From NCBI RefSeq assembly GCF_013315695.1, contig NZ_CP054353.1: a DNA stretch of 64,000 bases; one strand, 5' to 3'. This document shows, piece by piece, positions 4,548 through 33,379 of this stretch. Every line of letters starts with the position of its first letter. Position 1 is the stretch's first letter. The DNA comes from Escherichia coli (GTDB lineage: Bacteria; Pseudomonadota; Gammaproteobacteria; Enterobacterales; Enterobacteriaceae). The position numbers were made by a program, and so were the translations under genes. A model generated the notes under the pieces. That model ran no database searches and was not told where the DNA came from. It worked only from the letters and a program-made list of their open reading frames with translations.

Positions 4548-5444
4548 TCAGTAACAGCAGTAGCGAATAAAATAAAAAAATACCGGAGCGGTGAAAATTA
4601 ATGAGTCAATCCTGTCAAGGAGTCCGCCATGTCCTGGTAATAGTTTTCCACTATCTTTAACACCAATATCTCGTTTGATGGCTGACATCACTACATCGCC
4701 GCAAAAACCACTTACCCCAATCAGTAACCCCGCCAATAATGCCTGCCAGGCGTTTAAGGGTGTCAATAACGGTCCAATGATCATCGACGCTATCATGGTG
4801 GTGATTACGCCGCCCATCAGACCTTCCAGTGTTTTTCCCGGGCTGACTTTGGGGACCACTTTTCTTCTGCCGCAGGATTTTCCCCATAAATACTGTGCAA
4901 TATCGTTTGACTCGGTTAATGCCAAAAGAAATAACACCAGTAACGCCCCGCCCTGGATATTTGTGGTTGGCAACATTAATAACCAGGCGGCATGACTCAA
5001 GGCGAAAACGGTCATTATCCAGCCACAAAAAATGGCACTCACGGTATGCAGAAAACCAGAGGGGTCACCCACTAAAACTCGCCAGGTGGCTAATATCAGA
5101 AACCCAGCCAAAGGTATAAATAACAGAAACAGCTCAAAGCAATTAAAACCGATAAGCAAATAGTTAAGAGGAATACCCCAATATAACCAACGCGGAAAAT
5201 GTACGGATATAAGCGTACAATATTCTTTCAATGCCAGAAAACTTATCAGCGCAAAAAACGTCAACGTCATCCAGCGTGGACCTGAAATCACCATTGAAAA
5301 ACAAATGACGATGCCCCACCAGGTACGAATACGTAATGTAACCTCACCCCCTTTTCCCTCCGGTAACCGCCATATCAGAAAACGGTTTATCAGCGTTGCT
5401 AAAATTAACAACGCGAAAAGTGTTGCCAGAGATTTTTCCAGCAT
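4548..5444 (-). CDS. ynbB: CDP-diglyceride synthetase (CdsA)-like membrane protein
   Basis: 298-aa polytopic membrane ORF; ATG at 5442-5444 overlaps the ynbA stop by 1 nt (operon coupling). Confidence 0.85.
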   Translation of the reverse strand: MLEKSLATLFALLILATLINRFLIWRLPEGKGGEVTLRIRTWWGIVICFSMVISGPRWMTLTFFALISFLALKEYCTLISVHFPRWLYWGIPLNYLLIGFNCFELFLLFIPLAGFLILATWRVLVGDPSGFLHTVSAIFCGWIMTVFALSHAAWLLMLPTTNIQGGALLVLFLLALTESNDIAQYLWGKSCGRRKVVPKVSPGKTLEGLMGGVITTMIASMIIGPLLTPLNAWQALLAGLLIGVSGFCGDVVMSAIKRDIGVKDSGKLLPGHGGLLDRIDSLIFTAPVFFYFIRYCCY

Positions 5445-6049
5445 TATCTTTCAGCACTCATCAGGAGCACACTTCGACAACGATTAATCGCAGTCCAGAG
5501 AAGCAAAATTGAAGCAATGCTCCATAAAAGATTATTCCATTGCATCCACTGTGGATAAATGGCAACAGCCAGCCCCCACAACCCAAATATTAACGCACGA
5601 TCGCTTTTGCCGAATGGACCGGCATAACTGCGAATACCGTTAATCGTCTGCGCGAGTAAACCGCAAAACTCAGTTAATATGGTGCAAAATAACATGAGTA
5701 TTACGAGTGATGCGTTACTTTCCGGTAAAAATAAAAACGGTAAATAAAGCGCAATATCGGAAATAACATCGCCAGTTTCATTCAAAATCGCCCCAAGACG
5801 TGTTTGCTGATTGCACTCACGCGCCATCATGCCATCCAGCGCATTGAGCGCCATACGGATAAAAAGCACGATAGGCAATAGCAAAAAGAGGATGGGTTGT
5901 GCCACCAACATCAACAGCAATCCGGTAAGAAGAGAAAGCGCCAGTGCAGCAAGAGTGATGTGATTCGCTGTAACATGGTGCTTATTAAGCCAAAACATCG
6001 TCGGCCTTAACAGCGACTGAAAGAGCGGTTTTATCTGGTAGAGCGTCAT
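5444..6049 (-). CDS. ynbA: CDP-alcohol phosphatidyltransferase-family membrane protein
   Basis: ORF track 5444..6055; ATG at 6047-6049 gives 201 aa (MTLYQIKPL...); CDP-alcohol phosphatidyltransferase-like motif region DGMMARE. Confidence 0.8.
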   Translation of the reverse strand: MTLYQIKPLFQSLLRPTMFWLNKHHVTANHITLAALALSLLTGLLLMLVAQPILFLLLPIVLFIRMALNALDGMMARECNQQTRLGAILNETGDVISDIALYLPFLFLPESNASLVILMLFCTILTEFCGLLAQTINGIRSYAGPFGKSDRALIFGLWGLAVAIYPQWMQWNNLLWSIASILLLWTAINRCRSVLLMSAER

Positions 6050-6219
6050 TATCAATCCTTGATAATTCGGTTTGCGCTATGGTGCATCAATTCCCCTGAC
6101 GGAGATATCGCAACACGCCGCTTCATTAAAAATTCAGAATATATCAAGGTATTGGGGACTCACCGTCAGGAATGATTATCCCCAATAAATCAAGTGGTTA
6201 AAAATTATTACGCTGTTAT

Positions 6220-6597
6220 TCAATACAACTCATTAAGTTTTCTCATCGCTTGTTCCCGTATTGCGCGCGTCTTACCGTTAAGCGCCAGCTGGCGGACTAA
6301 ATCCAGTTCAGGGTTAACAAGCTCTAACGCCAGCAAAGGATCACGTTTCAGCCTCGCCTTCAATACATCAACTGGGAAACGGGGATCATTCATCGCCATA
6401 ATCCACCACTCGGGATCAATTTCTGCCGCTAGTGCCGCAGACGGTGTATGGCGATTGTTAAGTGCGCCGAACTTGAAAAATGTAAGATTGCTTTTCGCCA
6501 GCGTACTCCACCATATACGATCCGGTTGTTTTGCCAGTTTATCCAGTTGCGCTAATGCATCGGAGTCAAGTGCATAATAAACACGTAACGCTTCGTT
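6220..6597 (-). pseudogene. ydbD: 3-prime remnant of ydbD, truncated by IS1
   Basis: Reverse-strand frame is open from the IS1 boundary (6597) to TGA at 6220-6222 (...TNEALRVYYALDSDALAQLDKLAKQPDRIWW...KLNELY*), with no start codon; position matches the gene preceding ynbA in K-12. Confidence 0.6.
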
Positions 6598-6652
6598 GGT
6601 GATGCTGCCAACTTACTGATTTAGTGTATGATGGTGTTTTTGAGGTGCTCCA

Positions 6653-6928
6653 GTGGCTTCTGTTTCTATCAGCTGTCCCTCCTGTTCAGCTACTGACGGG
6701 GTGGTGCGTAACGGCAAAAGCACCGCCGGACATCAGCGCTATCTCTGCTCTCACTGCCGTAAAACATGGCAACTGCAGTTCACTTACACCGCTTCTCAAC
6801 CCGGTACGCACCAGAAAATCATTGATATGGCCATGAATGGCGTTGGATGCCGGGCAACAGCCCGCATTATGGGCGTTGGCCTCAACACGATTTTACGTCA
6901 CTTAAAAAACTCAGGCCGCAGTCGGTAA
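6653..6928 (+). CDS. insA: IS1 InsA (transposition inhibitor / N-terminal part of InsAB transposase)
   Basis: 91-aa [42 protein letters not shown]..., zinc-finger CxxC...CxxC; A6C slippery site ttaaaaaac near its 3-prime end. Confidence 0.95.
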
Positions 6929-7350
6929 CCTCGCGCATACAGCCGGGCAGTGACGTCATCGTCTGCGCGGAAATGGACGAACAGTGGGGCTATGTCGGGG
7001 CTAAATCGCGCCAGCGCTGGCTGTTTTACGCGTATGACAGGCTCCGGAAGACGGTTGTTGCGCACGTATTCGGTGAACGCACTATGGCGACGCTGGGGCG
7101 TCTTATGAGCCTGCTGTCACCCTTTGACGTGGTGATATGGATGACGGATGGCTGGCCGCTGTATGAATCCCGCCTGAAGGGAAAGCTGCACGTAATCAGC
7201 AAGCGATATACGCAGCGAATTGAGCGGCATAACCTGAATCTGAGGCAGCACCTGGCACGGCTGGGACGGAAGTCGCTGTCGTTCTCAAAATCGGTGGAGC
7301 TGCATGACAAAGTCATCGGGCATTATCTGAACATAAAACACTATCAATAA
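6847..7350 (+). CDS. insB: IS1 InsB frame (expressed as InsAB by -1 frameshift)
   Basis: 167-aa ORF in -1 frame relative to insA, ending ...HYLNIKHYQ. Confidence 0.9.
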
Positions 7351-7505
7351 GTTGGAGTCATTACCACTTGAACCGATAATAAACGCAGAAATTCTATTTT
7401 GTAGCTCATTGTTGCCTCCTGTGTGAATTGTTCGAATCTACCAGGCTGCGATGAAAGAAGTCGTGTAGTAGAGAGCTATACCCGCAACAAGCGGGGCAGA
7501 CGTTC

Positions 7506-7829
7506 TTATTTCTGTAACCATTTTCCGTTAATGCCCTGCACATATTCTCCTGATTTAGCGCGAGCTACGAGCTTTTGCCCGGCAAGTTTCGCGATATCAT
7601 CTACCGACACATTATTTTGCTTTGCCAGTTGTTGATAGCTCGCTTTACGTTCGGCATTAATGTCGGTTACTAATTTCTCTGTTTCAGCATCTGTTTTCAG
7701 CGCAACCAGATAACCATAAAATGTTTCCCCTACCCGCCCCTGAGTTCTGGCTTCATCCAGAGTCAATGCCATTACATTGCTGCTTACCAAGCCAACAAGA
7801 AATGCACAAAGAAGTAATGTTCTTTTCAT
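7506..7829 (-). CDS. ydbL: Periplasmic protein YdbL (DUF1318)
   Basis: ORF track 7506..7910; start set at MKRTLLLCAFLVG... signal peptide (107 aa), last gene of ydbH-ynbE-ydbL. Confidence 0.85.
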   Translation of the reverse strand: MKRTLLLCAFLVGLVSSNVMALTLDEARTQGRVGETFYGYLVALKTDAETEKLVTDINAERKASYQQLAKQNNVSVDDIAKLAGQKLVARAKSGEYVQGINGKWLQK

Positions 7830-7836
7830 CATCACC

Positions 7837-8022
7837 TCAAAAAAGATCGCTACGGGTCTCAAGCAGCTCTTCGACATCTTTGTCTGCCTTGATGATGATC
7901 TCATGCTCAATTTTAACGTTCATATTGATAGTGATCGGTTCCTTAGGTGCAGCGACTTCAATGCGAGGCGTACAGCCAACCAGCATAAAAGATGACGTCA
8001 ACGCAGCCAGTAAAATTTTCAT
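7837..8022 (-). CDS. ynbE: Lipoprotein YnbE
   Basis: 61-aa ORF MKILLAALTSSFMLVGC... with lipobox LVGC; overlaps the ydbH stop by 4 nt. Confidence 0.85.
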   Translation of the reverse strand: MKILLAALTSSFMLVGCTPRIEVAAPKEPITINMNVKIEHEIIIKADKDVEELLETRSDLF

Positions 8023-16581: not shown

Positions 16582-16838
16582 CCGCGAAGAATAACGCATC
16601 ACTATTTAAATGTATAATTTTTATTTTGTATATGTCGCCAACAATATATTCACCAGACTTATTATCATTTCAGAAGAATTATTTGATTAAGGTTTTACTT
16701 AAGGCGTAACAAATAATATTTATCGTCTAACTGAACTTCTCCTTTAGGATGCTTTCACTCCCCGAAATGGGGATAAAAGGCAAGGTGATGCTGCCAACTT
16801 ACTGATTTAGTGTATGATGGTGTTTTTGAGGTGCTCCA

Positions 16839-17114
16839 GTGGCTTCTGTTTCTATCAGCTGTCCCTCCTGTTCAGCTACTGACGGGGTGGTGCGTAACGG
16901 CAAAAGCACCGCCGGACATCAGCGCTATCTCTGCTCTCACTGCCGTAAAACATGGCAACTGCAGTTCACTTACACCGCTTCTCAACCCGGTACGCACCAG
17001 AAAATCATTGATATGGCCATGAATGGCGTTGGATGCCGGGCAACAGCCCGCATTATGGGCGTTGGCCTCAACACGATTTTACGTCACTTAAAAAACTCAG
17101 GCCGCAGTCGGTAA
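16839..17114 (+). CDS. insA: IS1 InsA
   Basis: 91-aa ORF identical to the InsA of copy 1. Confidence 0.95.
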
Positions 17115-17536
17115 CCTCGCGCATACAGCCGGGCAGTGACGTCATCGTCTGCGCGGAAATGGACGAACAGTGGGGCTATGTCGGGGCTAAATCGCGCCAG
17201 CGCTGGCTGTTTTACGCGTATGACAGGCTCCGGAAGACGGTTGTTGCGCACGTATTCGGTGAACGCACTATGGCGACGCTGGGGCGTCTTATGAGCCTGC
17301 TGTCACCCTTTGACGTGGTGATATGGATGACGGATGGCTGGCCGCTGTATGAATCCCGCCTGAAGGGAAAGCTGCACGTAATCAGCAAGCGATATACGCA
17401 GCGAATTGAGCGGCATAACCTGAATCTGAGGCAGCACCTGGCACGGCTGGGACGGAAGTCGCTGTCGTTCTCAAAATCGGTGGAGCTGCATGACAAAGTC
17501 ATCGGGCATTATCTGAACATAAAACACTATCAATAA
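17033..17536 (+). CDS. insB: IS1 InsB frame
   Basis: 167-aa ORF identical to the InsB of copy 1. Confidence 0.9.
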
Positions 17537-17551
17537 GTTGGAGTCATTACC

Positions 17552-18357
17552 TCGATTACGGACGTAATTATGGCGTAATGTACGACATCGAAGGCTGGAC
17601 CGATATGCTGCCTGAATTTGGCGGTGACTCTTATACCAATGCAGACAACTTTATGACTGGTCGTGCCAACGGCGTCGCGACTTATCGTAATACTGATTTC
17701 TTCGGTCTGGTAAATGGTCTGAACTTCGCAGTGCAGTATCAAGGTAACAACGAAGGTGCCAGTAATGGTCAGGAAGGCACCAACAACGGACGTGATGTTC
17801 GCCATGAAAACGGTGACGGCTGGGGTCTTTCCACAACATATGATTTAGGCATGGGCTTTAGCGCTGGTGCGGCATACACCTCATCTGACCGCACCAATGA
17901 CCAGGTTAACCATACTGCGGCAGGTGGTGATAAAGCAGACGCGTGGACTGCTGGGCTAAAATACGATGCTAACAATATTTACCTGGCAACCATGTATTCA
18001 GAAACACGTAACATGACCCCGTTTGGCGACAGCGATTATGCAGTTGCGAACAAAACCCAGAACTTTGAAGTTACTGCACAGTACCAGTTTGATTTTGGTC
18101 TGCGTCCGGCAGTCTCTTTCCTGATGTCTAAAGGCCGTGACCTTCACGCTGCCGGTGGTGCAGACAACCCGGCAGGTGTTGATGATAAAGATCTGGTTAA
18201 ATACGCCGATGTTGGCGCGACTTACTATTTCAACAAAAATATGTCCACCTACGTTGACTATAAAATCAACCTGTTGGATGAAGATGACAGCTTCTACGCT
18301 GCCAACGGCATCTCTACCGATGATATTGTCGCTTTAGGTCTGGTTTATCAGTTCTAA
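17552..18357 (+). pseudogene. ompN: Outer-membrane porin OmpN, 5-prime-truncated by IS1 (about 110 N-terminal codons missing)
   Basis: Frame is open from the first base after IS1 (..[25 protein letters not shown]...LGLVYQF*), which aligns to the middle and C-terminus of OmpC-family porins; no signal peptide or promoter remains. Confidence 0.85.
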
Positions 18358-19484: not shown

Positions 19485-19516
19485 GTTCTAATTTTGCTCA
19501 CTATAGGTACTAAATT

Positions 19517-20431
19517 ATGTACTCAATAAAAAAAGTAACCATGCTCTTGGGGTGCCTCGCCCTCACCTGCTCGATCGCATTTCAGGCGAGTGCAACTGAA
19601 AAATTCAAGGTCATTACAACATTTACCATCATCGCAGATATGGCCAAAAACGTGGCTGGAGATGCTGCAGAAGTCTCATCCATAACCAAGCCCGGTGCAG
19701 AAATTCATGAGTATCAGCCTACCCCTGGCGATATTAAACGTGCGCAGGAGGCACAACTGATTCTCGCCAATGGTATGAATCTGGAATTGTGGTTCCAACG
19801 CTTTTACCAGCATCTTAATGGGGTTCCAGAAGTAATTGTCTCTTCGGGTGTGACGCCAGTAGGGATCACTGAAGGCCCCTATGAGGGCAAACCTAACCCC
19901 CATGCCTGGATGTCGCCAGATAATGCTCTGATTTACGTCGATAATATTCGTGATGCGTTGATAAAATACGATCCGGCAAATGCACAAACCTACCAACGTA
20001 ATGCCGATACTTATAAAGCCAAGATTACCCAAACCCTTGCCCCCCTGCGTAAGCAGATTGCTGAACTCCCTGAGAATCAGCGATGGATGGTCACCAGTGA
20101 AGGGGCTTTTTCTTATCTCGCACGCGATTTGGGGCTAAAAGAGCTTTATCTGTGGCCGATTAATGCCGATCAACAAGGCACGCCGCAGCAGGTACGTAAG
20201 GTTGTTGATATGGTGAAGAAAAATCATATCCCGGCAGTCTTTAGCGAGAGTACGATTTCCGATAAACCAGCGCGTCAGGTTGCGCGTGAAACCGGCGCGC
20301 ACTACGGCGGTGTACTCTATGTCGATTCCCTGAGCACAGAAAACGGCCCGGTACCTACGTATATCGACCTTCTGAAGGTTACTACCAGTACGCTGGTACA
20401 GGGAATTAAAGCCGGGAAAAGGGAGAAATAA
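19517..20431 (+). CDS. sitA: Mn/Fe ABC transporter periplasmic substrate-binding protein SitA
   Basis: 304-aa ORF with signal peptide, cluster-9 metal-binding family (SitA/YfeA/MntC-like). Confidence 0.9.
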
Positions 20432-21258
20432 TGATGCAATCTGCGGGCATTGTCGTTAATGATGTTACTGTCACCTGGCGTAACGGGCACACAGCACTGC
20501 GCGATGCATCCTTCACAGTACCAAGTGGATCTATTGCCGCTCTGGTTGGGGTAAACGGTTCCGGAAAATCGACGTTGTTTAAAGCGATTATGGGATTTGT
20601 GCGTCTGACCAGCGGAAAGATATCTGTTCTGGGTATTCCCACGCGACAGGCGCTACAGAAAAACCTGGTTGCCTACGTCCCTCAGTCAGAAGAGGTTGAC
20701 TGGTCATTTCCTGTACTAGTGGAAGATGTGGTGATGATGGGCCGCTATGGGCACATGGGTATGTTGCGTATAGCCAAAAAGAGGGATCGTCAGATTGTCA
20801 CCGATGCGCTGGAACGTGTCGATATGGTGGATTTTCGCCATCGACAAATCGGCGAGCTTTCCGGTGGACAAAAGAAACGCGTCTTTCTGGCGAGAGCGAT
20901 TGCACAGCAGGGTGATGTGATCCTGCTGGATGAACCTTTTACCGGCGTTGATGTGAAAACCGAAGCGAAAATCATCAGCCTGTTGAGGGAGTTACGCGCG
21001 GAAGGCAAGACGATGCTTGTCTCAACGCACAATCTCGGCTCAGTCACGACATTTTGCGATTATACGGTCATGGTCAAAGGCACCGTCCTGGCAAGCGGGC
21101 CGACAGACACCACTTTTACAGCCGAGAACCTGGAGCTGGCTTTTAGCGGCGTACTGCGCCATGTCACACTTAACGCCTCGGAAGAAAGCATTATTACTGA
21201 CGATGAACACCCTTTTGTGGCACATCGACCGTCAGCGGTGCAGAGGGAAGCAAGATGA
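20431..21258 (+). CDS. sitB: Mn/Fe ABC transporter ATP-binding protein SitB
   Basis: 275-aa ORF with Walker [13 protein letters not shown] signature LSGGQKKR and Walker B ILLDEP. Confidence 0.9.
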
Positions 21259-22112
21259 ACGTGCTACTGGAACCCTTCAGCTATGAATATATGCTCAATG
21301 CGATGTGGGTCTCGGCGATGGTCGGCGGTCTCTGCGCTTTCCTGTCATGCTATCTGATGCTAAAAGGCTGGTCGCTGATTGGCGATGCGCTGTCGCACTC
21401 TATTGTCCCGGGTGTTGCGGGGGCATATATGCTGGGGCTTCCGTTTTCTCTGGGAGCCTTCTTTTCCGGCGGACTGGCAGCGGGCAGCATGCTGTTTCTT
21501 AACCAACGCACTCGCTTAAAAGAAGATGCCATCATCGGCCTGATCTTCTCCTCCTTTTTTGGCCTGGGGCTGTTTATGGTGTCATTGAACCCGACATCCG
21601 TGAACATTCAGACCATCGTCCTAGGCAATATTCTGGCAATCGATCCGGCGGATATCCTGCAACTCACTATCATTGGCATTCTCTCGATCATCGTGCTTTT
21701 TTTCAAATGGAAAGATCTTATGGTGACCTTTTTCGACGAGAATCACGCCCGTGCTATTGGATTGCATCCGGGCAGATTAAAAATCCTCTTCTTCACCCTG
21801 CTGTCGGTTTCGACCGTTGCGGCGCTGCAAACGGTTGGTGCCTTTCTGGTGATCTGTCTGGTGGTGACTCCCGGTGCAACAGCATGGTTGTTAACCGATC
21901 GTTTTCCCCGCCTGCTCATAATTGCTGTAACTATTGGCAGTGTAACCAGTTTCCTCGGCGCGTGGGTCAGTTACTTTCTGGACGGCGCGACAGGTGGAAT
22001 CATCGTGGTGGCGCAGACACTGCTGTTTCTTTTAGCATTTGTATTTGCGCCCACCCATGGGCTTTTGGCAAATCGTCGGCGTGCGCATAAAGCGCTGGAG
22101 GATCGCTCATGA
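21255..22112 (+). CDS. sitC: Mn/Fe ABC transporter permease SitC
   Basis: 285-aa polytopic membrane ORF; start overlaps the sitB stop. Confidence 0.9.
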
Positions 22113-22966
22113 TGGCATTATTACTGGAGCCACTGCAGTTCACCTTTATGAGTCACGCACTGCTGATTTCACTGGTAGTTTCCATACCCTGTGCGCTGCT
22201 GTCGGTCTTTCTGGTCCTGAAAGGTTGGGCACTGATGGGTGACGCGATGAGTCATGCGGTTTTTCCTGGCATCGTGCTTGCCTGGATTCTGGGGTTACCT
22301 CTGGCTACAGGGGCATTTATCGCCGGAGTATTCTGCGCGGTGGCGACGGGATACCTGAAAGACAACAGCCGAATCAAGCAAGATACAGTGATGGGGATTG
22401 TTTTTTCTGGCATGTTTGCCGCAGGTCTGATCTTGTATATTGCAGTCAAACCAGACATACATCTTGACCATATTCTTTTCGGCGACATGCTCGGGGTAAC
22501 CATCGGCGATATAATCCAGACGATGATTATTGCCGGGCTGGTTACACTTGTTATTAGCGTAAAATGGCGGGATTTTTTGCTGTTCAGCTTTGATTATCAA
22601 CAGGCGCAGGTAAGCGGTTTGCATACGCGATGGCTGCATTATGGGCTGCTGTGCATGGTTTCCCTGACCATTGTGGCGACGCTGAAAGCAGTAGGTATCA
22701 TTCTCTCCATTTCTCTGCTCATTGCGCCTGGCGCCATTGCGGTACTCCTGACACAACGCTTTCATATTGCACTCCTACTGGCGACTGGCATATCGGTAAT
22801 AGTCTCAATGACTGGTGTTTGGCTGTCCTTTTTTATCGACAGCGCACCCGCTCCGACGATTGTCGTCTTATTCGCGGTTGTGTTCATCATGACGTTTACC
22901 GTTATCAGTTTCAACGCACGCACAAAGGGAAACGCTCATAGACAGGATCTGTTATCCCCCAATTAG
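22109..22966 (+). CDS. sitD: Mn/Fe ABC transporter permease SitD
   Basis: 285-aa polytopic membrane ORF paralogous to SitC; start overlaps the sitC stop. Confidence 0.9.
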   Translation: MMALLLEPLQFTFMSHALLISLVVSIPCALLSVFLVLKGWALMGDAMSHAVFPGIVLAWILGLPLATGAFIAGVFCAVATGYLKDNSRIKQDTVMGIVFSGMFAAGLILYIAVKPDIHLDHILFGDMLGVTIGDIIQTMIIAGLVTLVISVKWRDFLLFSFDYQQAQVSGLHTRWLHYGLLCMVSLTIVATLKAVGIILSISLLIAPGAIAVLLTQRFHIALLLATGISVIVSMTGVWLSFFIDSAPAPTIVVLFAVVFIMTFTVISFNARTKGNAHRQDLLSPN

Positions 22967-23077
22967 CACAACATCCGAGGGCAGCATTGTCCGCTAGTAC
23001 ACTGCAGTCCAGAAAGTCATGGGCGGACGTTGGGAGGAGGCGCTAATCCTTTCATACAAAAAATATGTAAAATCAAT

Positions 23078-25072: not shown

Positions 25073-25148
25073 TTTCATCCTACCCAATAAAACGAGGCGC
25101 TCGGCCCCTTAATATTATTTAGACGCAAGCGTCGGTAATGACTCCAAC

Positions 25149-25652
25149 TTATTGATAGTGTTTTATGTTCAGATAATGCCCGATGACTTTGTCATGCAGC
25201 TCCACCGATTTTGAGAACGACAGCGACTTCCGTCCCAGCCGTGCCAGGTGCTGCCTCAGATTCAGGTTATGCCGCTCAATTCGCTGCGTATATCGCTTGC
25301 TGATTACGTGCAGCTTTCCCTTCAGGCGGGATTCATACAGCGGCCAGCCATCCGTCATCCATATCACCACGTCAAAGGGTGACAGCAGGCTCATAAGACG
25401 CCCCAGCGTCGCCATAGTGCGTTCACCGAATACGTGCGCAACAACCGTCTTCCGGAGCCTGTCATACGCGTAAAACAGCCAGCGCTGGCGCGATTTAGCC
25501 CCGACATAGCCCCACTGTTCGTCCATTTCCGCGCAGACGATGACGTCACTGCCCGGCTGTATGCGCGAGGTTACCGACTGCGGCCTGAGTTTTTTAAGTG
25601 ACGTAAAATCGTGTTGAGGCCAACGCCCATAATGCGGGCTGTTGCCCGGCAT
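25149..25652 (-). CDS. insB: IS1 InsB frame
   Basis: 167-aa ORF identical to the other InsB copies. Confidence 0.9.
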
Positions 25653-25846
25653 CCAACGCCATTCATGGCCATATCAATGATTTTCTGGTGCGTACCGGGT
25701 TGAGAAGCGGTGTAAGTGAACTGCAGTTGCCATGTTTTACGGCAGTGAGAGCAGAGATAGCGCTGATGTCCGGCGGTGCTTTTGCCGTTACGCACCACCC
25801 CGTCAGTAGCTGAACAGGAGGGACAGCTGATAGAAACAGAAGCCAC
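25571..25846 (-). CDS. insA: IS1 InsA
   Basis: 91-aa ORF identical to the other InsA copies. Confidence 0.95.
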
Positions 25847-25925
25847 TGGAGCACCTCAAAAACACCATCATACACTAAATCAGTAAGTTGGCAGCATCAC
25901 CCCCGGCGTTAAGGGGAGAGATAAG

Positions 25926-32145: not shown

Positions 32146-33379
32146 ATGTCTAAATTACCAACAGGTGTCGAGATTAGAGGTAGATACATTCGCATCTGGT
32201 TCATGTTTCGAGGAAAACGATGTCGGGAAACATTAAAAGGCTGGGAGATTACAAACAGTAATATTAAAAAGGCCGGAAATTTAAGAGCGCTGATAGTTCA
32301 TGAAATAAACTCCGGTAAATTTGAGTATTTAAGACGTTTTCCCCAGTCCAGCACTGGGGCAAAAATGGTGATAACGAGAGTCATAAAAACGTTCGGAGAG
32401 CTTTGTGATATCTGGACAAAAATTAAAGAGACAGAGTTAACAACAAACACAATAAAGAAAACGAAATCACAATTAAAAACACTCAGAATAATAATTTGTG
32501 AAAGTACCCTGATATCACATATTCGTTATAGCGATATCTTAAACTACCGGAATGAACTGCTGCATGGAGAAACGCTTTACCTGGATAATCCAAGATCCAA
32601 CAAAAAAGGAAGAACCGTGCGCACAGTTGATAACTATATCGCCCTGCTCTGTTCGCTGTTACGTTTTGCGTATCAGTCGGGATTTATATCAACCAAACCA
32701 TTTGAAGGAGAAAAAATTACAGCGAAACAGAATAAAGCCTGATCCGTTATCTAAAACAGAATTCAATGCATTAATGGAAAGTGAAAAAGGACAGAGCCAG
32801 AACATGTGGAAATTTGCAGTTTACTCAGGACTTCGTCACGGGGAACTGGCAGCTCTGGCGTGGGAGGATGTGGATCTCGAAAAGGGAATAGTGAATGTCA
32901 GAAGAAACCTGACGATACTTGATATGTTCGGTCCCCCAAAAACAAATGCCGGGATCCGGACAGTAACACTACTGCAGCCTGCTCTTGAAGCACTGAAGGA
33001 GCAATACAAACTGACCGGGCATCATCGCAAAAGCGAAATCACCTTTTATCATCGGGAGTACGGCAGAACCGAAAAGCAAAAACTGCATTTTGTTTTCATG
33101 CCCAGGGTGTGTAACGGAAAACAAAAACCTTATTACTCGGTAAGCAGTTTGGGGGCAAGGTGGAATGCAGCAGTAAAACGTGCTGGTATTCGCCGCCGTA
33201 ATCCGTACCATACGCGGCATACTTTTGCCTGCTGGCTGTTGACGGCAGGAGCGAACCCGGCATTTATAGCCAGCCAAATGGGGCATGAAACTGCGCAGAT
33301 GGTGTATGAAATTTACGGTATGTGGATTGATGACATGAACGACGAACAGATAGCCATGTTGAATGCGCGGTTATCATAG
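32146..33379 (+). pseudogene. intR: Rac-prophage tyrosine integrase, apparently split by a +/-1 frameshift near 32709-32716
   Basis: ORF 32146..32742 (198 aa, ...STKPFEGEKITAKQNKA*) and ORF 32552..33379 carry the N- and C-terminal parts (catalytic ...HTRHTFACWLL...) in adjacent frames; frames switch in the run gagaaaaaatt; the sum of the parts is about 411 codons. Confidence 0.7.

Follow-up and report, generated by a model that had tools for sequence, protein, structure and literature searches.

An IS1A element without a target duplication marks a 9,135-bp deletion of pdxI, a bigA/ydbA-family autotransporter gene and most of ydbD in a clinical clone of Escherichia coli

Introduction

What has become of the DNA between ydbD and ydbL at a chromosomal site of Escherichia coli where a complete IS1 now stands between a fragment of the first gene and an intact copy of the second? 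The site lies in a 64,000-nucleotide stretch of contig NZ_CP054353.1 (assembly GCF_013315695.1). That whole stretch is called the window here, and coordinates given without another source refer to it. The usual causes of an absent target duplication, which is the condition of this IS1, are adjacent deletion and recombination between IS copies (PMC11708052), and both IS1 and Tn9 make adjacent deletions through intramolecular transposition (PMC9330008). The paa/ydbA interval, between ydbH-ynbE-ydbL and ynbC-ynbD-azoR, is a region of heterogeneity in E. coli (PMC4951805). The question is how much DNA, and which genes, gave way to the IS1, and by what route.

Results

The element is a complete IS1A of 768 bp on the + strand at 6598..7365, recognized from its inverted repeats, ORFs, family-model matches and flanks. 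Its imperfect terminal inverted repeats, of about 23 bp, are IRL at 6598-6620 and IRR at 7343-7365; taken as arms of 24 nt (6597-6620 and 7343-7366) they are 79% complementary. In the ORF list insA (6653-6928) and insB' (6847-7350) overlap in the -1 frame, and the A6C frameshift motif AAAAAAC, the slippery site, lies at 6904-6910. The NCBIfam IS1 transposase model NF033558 matches each of the two ORFs (E values of 7.5e-26 and 1.8e-42), over profile positions 1-81 and 75-199 respectively. The length of about 768 bp, the inverted repeats, the -1 programmed frameshift and the family-model match are those of IS1A, and PGAP names the feature 'IS1A family transposase, programmed frameshift' in the genomes that are identical here. 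The 9-mers on either side, CGCTTCGTT and ACTTGAACC, are unrelated, as the first-pass annotation of this DNA had noticed, so the 9-bp target duplication is absent. Such a duplication reflects how a copy was inserted and is no trait of the IS1 element itself.

On its left the element abuts the 3' remnant of ydbD, the gene of a DUF2773/bactofilin-like protein. The remnant (6220..6597, - strand, 378 nt) comprises the last 125 codons and the stop, the 126 codons counted in the first pass, and meets IRL exactly. Its translation is identical to the C-terminus of the 711-residue YdbD of strain AF10, the relative used as reference below, and similar to K-12 YdbD; in the two RefSeq genomes that are identical here PGAP annotates it as a DUF2773 pseudogene without an N-terminus. 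Downstream of it an intact ynbA (5444..6049, - strand) forms the left boundary of the affected region. On the right, IRR is followed by 140 bp (7366..7505, no strand), the surviving stretch of a lineage-specific spacer between ydbL and bigA (ydbA), which reaches the ydbL stop; the 140 bp reported earlier for this distance agrees with the measurement. Next comes ydbL (7506..7829, - strand), the last gene of ydbH-ynbE-ydbL, which is intact according to ORFs, RefSeq annotation and alignment. The RefSeq annotation of the two identical genomes gives the same feature list, DUF2773 pseudogene, IS1A transposase and ydbL. An NCBIfam profile search assigned no family to the YdbD remnant or to YdbL, and both are identified by alignment to K-12 and AF10 and by the RefSeq annotation. 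A terminator and promoter scan of 6100-7900 returned nothing exceeding shuffle expectation. In the 50 bp to each side, GC content is 29% for the right IS1 junction and 47% for the left. AT-richness was considered as a pointer to the original insertion site and dropped, because the transposase picks both ends whichever the order.

The segment 5900-8100 was compared by megablast with 5,426 complete E. coli genomes. Only two of them have the whole configuration: NZ_OZ547117.1 (AF3, UK, blood culture) and NZ_LR898874.1 (MSB1_4I, Australia, rectal swab). When 240-bp queries centred on each junction were run against the same genomes, single uninterrupted matches were again confined to AF3 and MSB1_4I, with both junctions in each; this is the outcome of the survey of relatives that the first-pass annotation had recommended. 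Eighteen other matches at 80% coverage or more have IS1 at different positions in ydbD. The precursor that marks an adjacent deletion, a simple insertion with IS1 and its duplication at just one junction, was found for the ydbD site in none of the 5,426 genomes. The window as a whole is identical to no complete RefSeq E. coli genome. It is 100% identical to MSB1_4I over the parts compared, except for a 362-bp deletion at ompN, and differs from AF3 by the same deletion and by 7 substitutions in 49.6 kb. Since it lacks 362 bp that are present in both AF3 and MSB1_4I, the window represents a third member of the clone. The junction is a clonal marker common to the UK and Australian isolates and the window strain, and its anatomy and clonal inheritance are established. 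The clone is an IS1-rich clinical lineage, with at least 40 places per genome occupied by IS1.

The closest genomes without IS1 at this site are NZ_OZ546911.1 (AF10) and NZ_OZ546925.1, which are 99.9% identical to the window over 18.5 kb of right flank. In the orientation of the window, the AF10 genes are ynbB, ynbA (interrupted by IS3), ydbD, pdxI, a bigA-like gene, a 452-bp spacer and ydbL. The left flank of the IS1 is 100% identical to AF10 up to L004 35575, and the right flank is 99.94% identical from L004 44711 onward. The deletion relative to AF10, a close relative with private IS events and not the literal ancestor, is therefore exactly 9,135 bp (AF10 L004 35576-44710), between the junctions 35575/35576 and 44710/44711. 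The IS is intact and the missing DNA starts exactly at its terminus, as in an adjacent deletion. With no duplication, and with complete IS1 ends abutting sites that are 9,135 bp apart in AF10, the earlier view that this is an IS1-associated deletion and not a simple insertion is upheld. The private IS events of AF10 (L004 33086-35027 and L010 6153-8063) are an IS3 splitting ynbA, an IS1 within ompN and an IS1 truncating recE.

The missing AF10 interval contains 1,758 bp (586 codons) of the 2,136-bp ydbD, pdxI, a 5,934-bp autotransporter gene and 312 bp upstream of the latter. The 5,934-bp gene is annotated 'pectate lyase-fold' in AF10 and is elsewhere named autotransporter adhesin BigA or BigA/YdbA. 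The genes lost are the 5' part of ydbD, pdxI (ydbC) and a ydbA/bigA-family autotransporter gene; this content, like the end points relative to the nearest relative, is directly observed. The deleted block occurs at 100% identity only in AF10 and NZ_OZ546925.1, so it has not been relocated elsewhere in AF3 or MSB1_4I.

A larger loss had been proposed from comparison with K-12, where the first-pass annotation placed about 40 kb between the two points and held that IS1 had replaced a ydbD-to-feaR block containing paa, tynA, feaB and feaR. The real distance in K-12, from the ydbL stop to the ydbD breakpoint at 1,477,073, is 30,866 bp. Aligning the flanks to K-12, as had been advised, yields this figure but is unusable for the true loss, because the right-hand 152 bp have no K-12 counterpart, and K-12 was dropped as the reference for deletion size. 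Homology to K-12 ends 12 bp within ydbL, at 7518, and not at the IS1 end; across the first 148 bp of common ydbL sequence the 3' end of the gene is about 91% identical to that of K-12. The boundary of the variable fea-tynA-paa island falls within the last codons of ydbL (7506-7520; the AF10 stretch considered with it is L004 44399-44850).

The 140 bp at 7366-7505 are 100% identical to AF10 L004 44711-44850, the ydbL-proximal part of the ydbL-bigA spacer. They have no match in K-12 1,440,000-1,482,000, even at 7-nt words, and none in the fea/paa-positive loci of MS 69-1 or LR-28 or in TUM9757. Had IS1 cut a K-12-like ydbL-feaR spacer, that spacer would remain here, and none does. The AF10-type sequence in its place means that ydbL adjoined bigA, not feaR, before the deletion. 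The annotation of the AF10 locus likewise contains no feaR, feaB, tynA or paa genes, so that neither a ydbL-feaR spacer next to ydbL nor a feaR...paaY block in the closest relatives, both presupposed by the larger deletion, is found. Adjacency of ydbL and bigA occurs in 42 of the 5,426 complete genomes, including SMS-3-5, and the K-12-type adjacency of ydbL and feaR in 4,160. The island feaR-feaB-tynA-paa is carried by MS 69-1, a more distant relative (98.6% identical), and is lacking in AF10; it is therefore variable among related strains and absent from the immediate background of the clone. As judged from the spacer and from AF10, the phenylacetate (paa/fea) genes were already absent from the site in this lineage when IS1 acted. 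A lineage that never carried the block had been named in the first pass as grounds for abandoning its reading, and this is largely what is found. Its interpretation holds as to an IS1-mediated deletion and fails as to the replaced paa/tynA/fea block, the loss being 9,135 bp and not 30-40 kb; in its list of lost genes, measured against the gene content of AF10, ydbC and ydbA stand and paa, tynA, feaB and feaR do not. In some genomes (e.g. strain 4/4 and LR-28) a feaR fragment is fused beside paaY.

The window contains two other IS1 copies, and all three are 100% identical to one another. The second (16784-17551) lies upstream of ompN, whose remnant occupies about 17552-18357. Its site is empty in AF10. 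In AF3 and MSB1_4I the element stands 34 bp upstream of ompN between the two copies of a perfect 9-bp duplication, AAAAGGCAA; the window lacks the 362 bp that begin exactly at IRR, and with them the second copy of the duplication, the ompN start and about 109 codons. At ompN a one-ended adjacent deletion can be seen together with its precursor. No target duplication flanks the third copy (25134-25901, - strand; GCAAGCGTC / CCCGGCGTT). On its left, just 19 bp are left of a prophage tail-fibre gene, which both MS 69-1 and AF10 have complete, and its right flank leads to ydaF-sieB-kilR-racC-recE of a Rac-like prophage remnant. This copy is probably the mark of a further IS1-linked deletion, in which prophage late genes were lost.

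Several features of the neighbourhood vary among relatives. MS 69-1 has an oppositely oriented IS1 between nifJ and ompN (L009 23254-23951), and across three related genome types this interval has IS1 at three different positions. The Rac-type integrase gene intR (about 32146-33379) is frameshifted in the AF3 annotation and intact in AF10. The stretch from uspF to the prophage remnant contains a chromosomal sitABCD iron/manganese transporter, at about 19500-23000. The window coordinates of intR and sitABCD are AF3 positions minus the 362-bp offset.

The ydbD-pdxI-ydbA region is eroded in other strains as well. GF60 has a duplication-less IS1 in ydbD with 101 bp missing within the gene. In LR-28 a duplication-less IS1 accompanies a loss of about 2.7 kb that begins in ydbD and ends in the pdxI-ydbA spacer, and separate IS-free deletions have removed ydbA and the stretch from paaX to feaR. 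In TUM9757 a duplication-less IS1 lies between ydbD and a K-12-like ydbL, with its ydbL junction 4 bp short of the stop. Measured on K-12, that deletion spans about 29.7 kb; it is the type of event imagined in the first pass, in a different strain. Counting the present 9.1 kb, independent IS1-linked deletions starting in ydbD thus run from 101 bp through 2.7 kb to as much as about 30 kb in unrelated strains. The ydbA/bigA gene is interrupted by IS2 and IS30 in K-12, by IS1414 in GF60 and by an annotated IS1 in TUM1586. About 14 near-identical genomes (labelled 042, Ec-042-T…, AR…) and two others have IS1 in ydbD a few hundred bp away from the present position, and an IS5 lies within the ydbD-pdxI-ydbA/bigA interval of another strain.

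Discussion

The 9,135-bp loss is best explained, with somewhat better than even confidence, by one-ended adjacent deletion from a pre-existing IS1. The ancestral order would have been ydbL, the 452-bp spacer, the bigA/ydbA-family autotransporter gene, pdxI (ydbC), ydbD and ynbA, with no fea-tynA-paa island. IS1 would have inserted at one of the present junctions, either behind codon 586 of ydbD or within the AT-rich spacer, at 140 bp from ydbL. One end of the element would then have attacked the other site on the same chromosome, by the intramolecular replicative transposition that constitutes adjacent deletion, and the intervening DNA would have been lost, leaving IS1 intact and no matching target duplication. 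Such a course would remove the autotransporter gene and pdxI and reduce ydbD to a promoterless stub of 125 codons. At the reciprocal junctions, IRR would be followed by AACCTGCGC and IRL preceded by TTATTATTTT.

The main competitor, a real but clearly smaller likelihood, has two IS1 copies of like orientation insert independently into ydbD and into the ydbL-bigA spacer, after which RecA-dependent homologous recombination removes the 9.1 kb and one IS1. Exactly the anatomy seen is predicted, since a single IS1 would remain between the outer halves of two different target duplications, and recombination between IS copies is a recognized cause of absent duplications (PMC11708052). The genome, with its 40 or more IS1 places, would supply the elements, and the repeated strikes of IS1 on ydbD in other strains make two insertions 9 kb apart plausible. 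Three events are required, however, against two for adjacent deletion, neither single insertion was found among the 5,426 genomes, and at ompN the same clone demonstrably makes one-ended adjacent deletions. A hybrid IS1 was sought as a trace of recombination and is uninformative: with all three window copies 100% identical, a recombinant IS1 would look no different. What favours adjacent deletion is the smaller number of events and its direct appearance at the ompN IS1 of the clone, and we infer the order of events, and one-ended transposition over recombination between two IS1 copies, as the most likely course.

Other explanations carry far less weight. Capture of IS1 at a double-strand break, in a single-step IS-independent deletion without target cleavage by transposase, would account for the absence of both duplication and precursor, and is a published hypothesis proposed for some IS5 and IS481 events (PMC11708052). 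Even there the mechanism is unproven, and it has not been shown for IS1; both IS1 ends at ydbD are base-exact, and the ompN element displays the conventional stepwise route in this clone, which together make break capture improbable. Still less credible is the loss of a K-12-like block of 30-40 kb from feaR to ydbD, and with it of phenylacetate/phenylethylamine catabolism. It can draw on the prevalence of the feaR-ydbL adjacency, on the island in MS 69-1 and on the IS1 junction of TUM9757, which fits such a large deletion in that strain. It founders on the 140 bp of AF10 spacer, which have no counterpart in K-12, MS 69-1, LR-28 or TUM9757, on the lack of fea/paa at the AF10 locus despite flanks that are 99.9-100% identical, and on K-12 homology that stops inside ydbL rather than at IS1. 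An assembly artefact, in which repeats collapsed at IS1 and joined non-adjacent regions, deserves mention because IS1 is highly repeated in the genome and repeats are classic misassembly points. Its probability is negligible: two independently sequenced complete genomes from different countries have the same junction as the window, three independent sequences that rule such an artefact out, and the missing block did not turn up at another place in AF3 or MSB1_4I.

The event is a textbook outcome of IS1 activity. Classic IS1-mediated deletions in the gal region of E. coli K-12 were reportedly described by Reif and Saedler in 1975. Those deletions, and IS1 and Tn9 transposition, share with the present case an intact element, a start at the IS1 terminus, a variable distal end, no duplication spanning the element and a size in the kilobase range. 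There is no mechanistic difference; the present event is natural and clonally inherited in clinical isolates, and its precursor was not found among the 5,426 genomes. An IS3-family case in laboratory populations is also alike, in that insertion came first, an IS-adjacent deletion followed and no duplication was left, and the ompN IS1 of the window forms the same stepwise series across sister genomes. The IS3-family case was followed in time-resolved laboratory samples, whereas here the element is IS1, the isolates are natural and no intermediate was seen at ydbD. A literature search for ydbD together with IS1 returned no papers, and this particular junction seems to be undescribed, yet unsurprising.

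The locus falls in the same interval as the region of heterogeneity described earlier (PMC4951805), and the two accounts have in common variable carriage of paa and of full-length ydbA, multiple independent deletions and the IS interruptions of ydbA in MG1655. The earlier cases concern phylogroup A and deletions inside paa, whereas here the whole fea-paa island is absent from the lineage and the event takes out bigA/ydbA, pdxI and most of ydbD. Selection against BigA/YdbA or YdbD may have driven convergent gene loss at ydbD-pdxI-ydbA/bigA in host-associated E. coli, usually by means of IS1, but this is a doubtful proposition; the same pattern may equally fit a neutral hotspot, dispensable DNA near an IS1-prone target. 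If loss were selected, shedding a large surface adhesin or antigen could benefit bloodstream or gut-colonizing clones.

The practical value of the junction is modest, that of a clean clonal marker. As the case shows, when K-12 is the sole comparison for a clinical strain, the list of lost genes comes out wrong. This event did not cost the clone its phenylacetate/phenylethylamine catabolism, and growth on those substrates would therefore be uninformative about it. Gone instead are a BigA/YdbA-family autotransporter, PdxI, which is the pyridoxal reductase, and YdbD, which is bactofilin-like. The deletion and the two further IS1 copies of the window, which likewise lack a duplication, point to a lineage rich in IS1 that loses DNA step by step through adjacent deletion.
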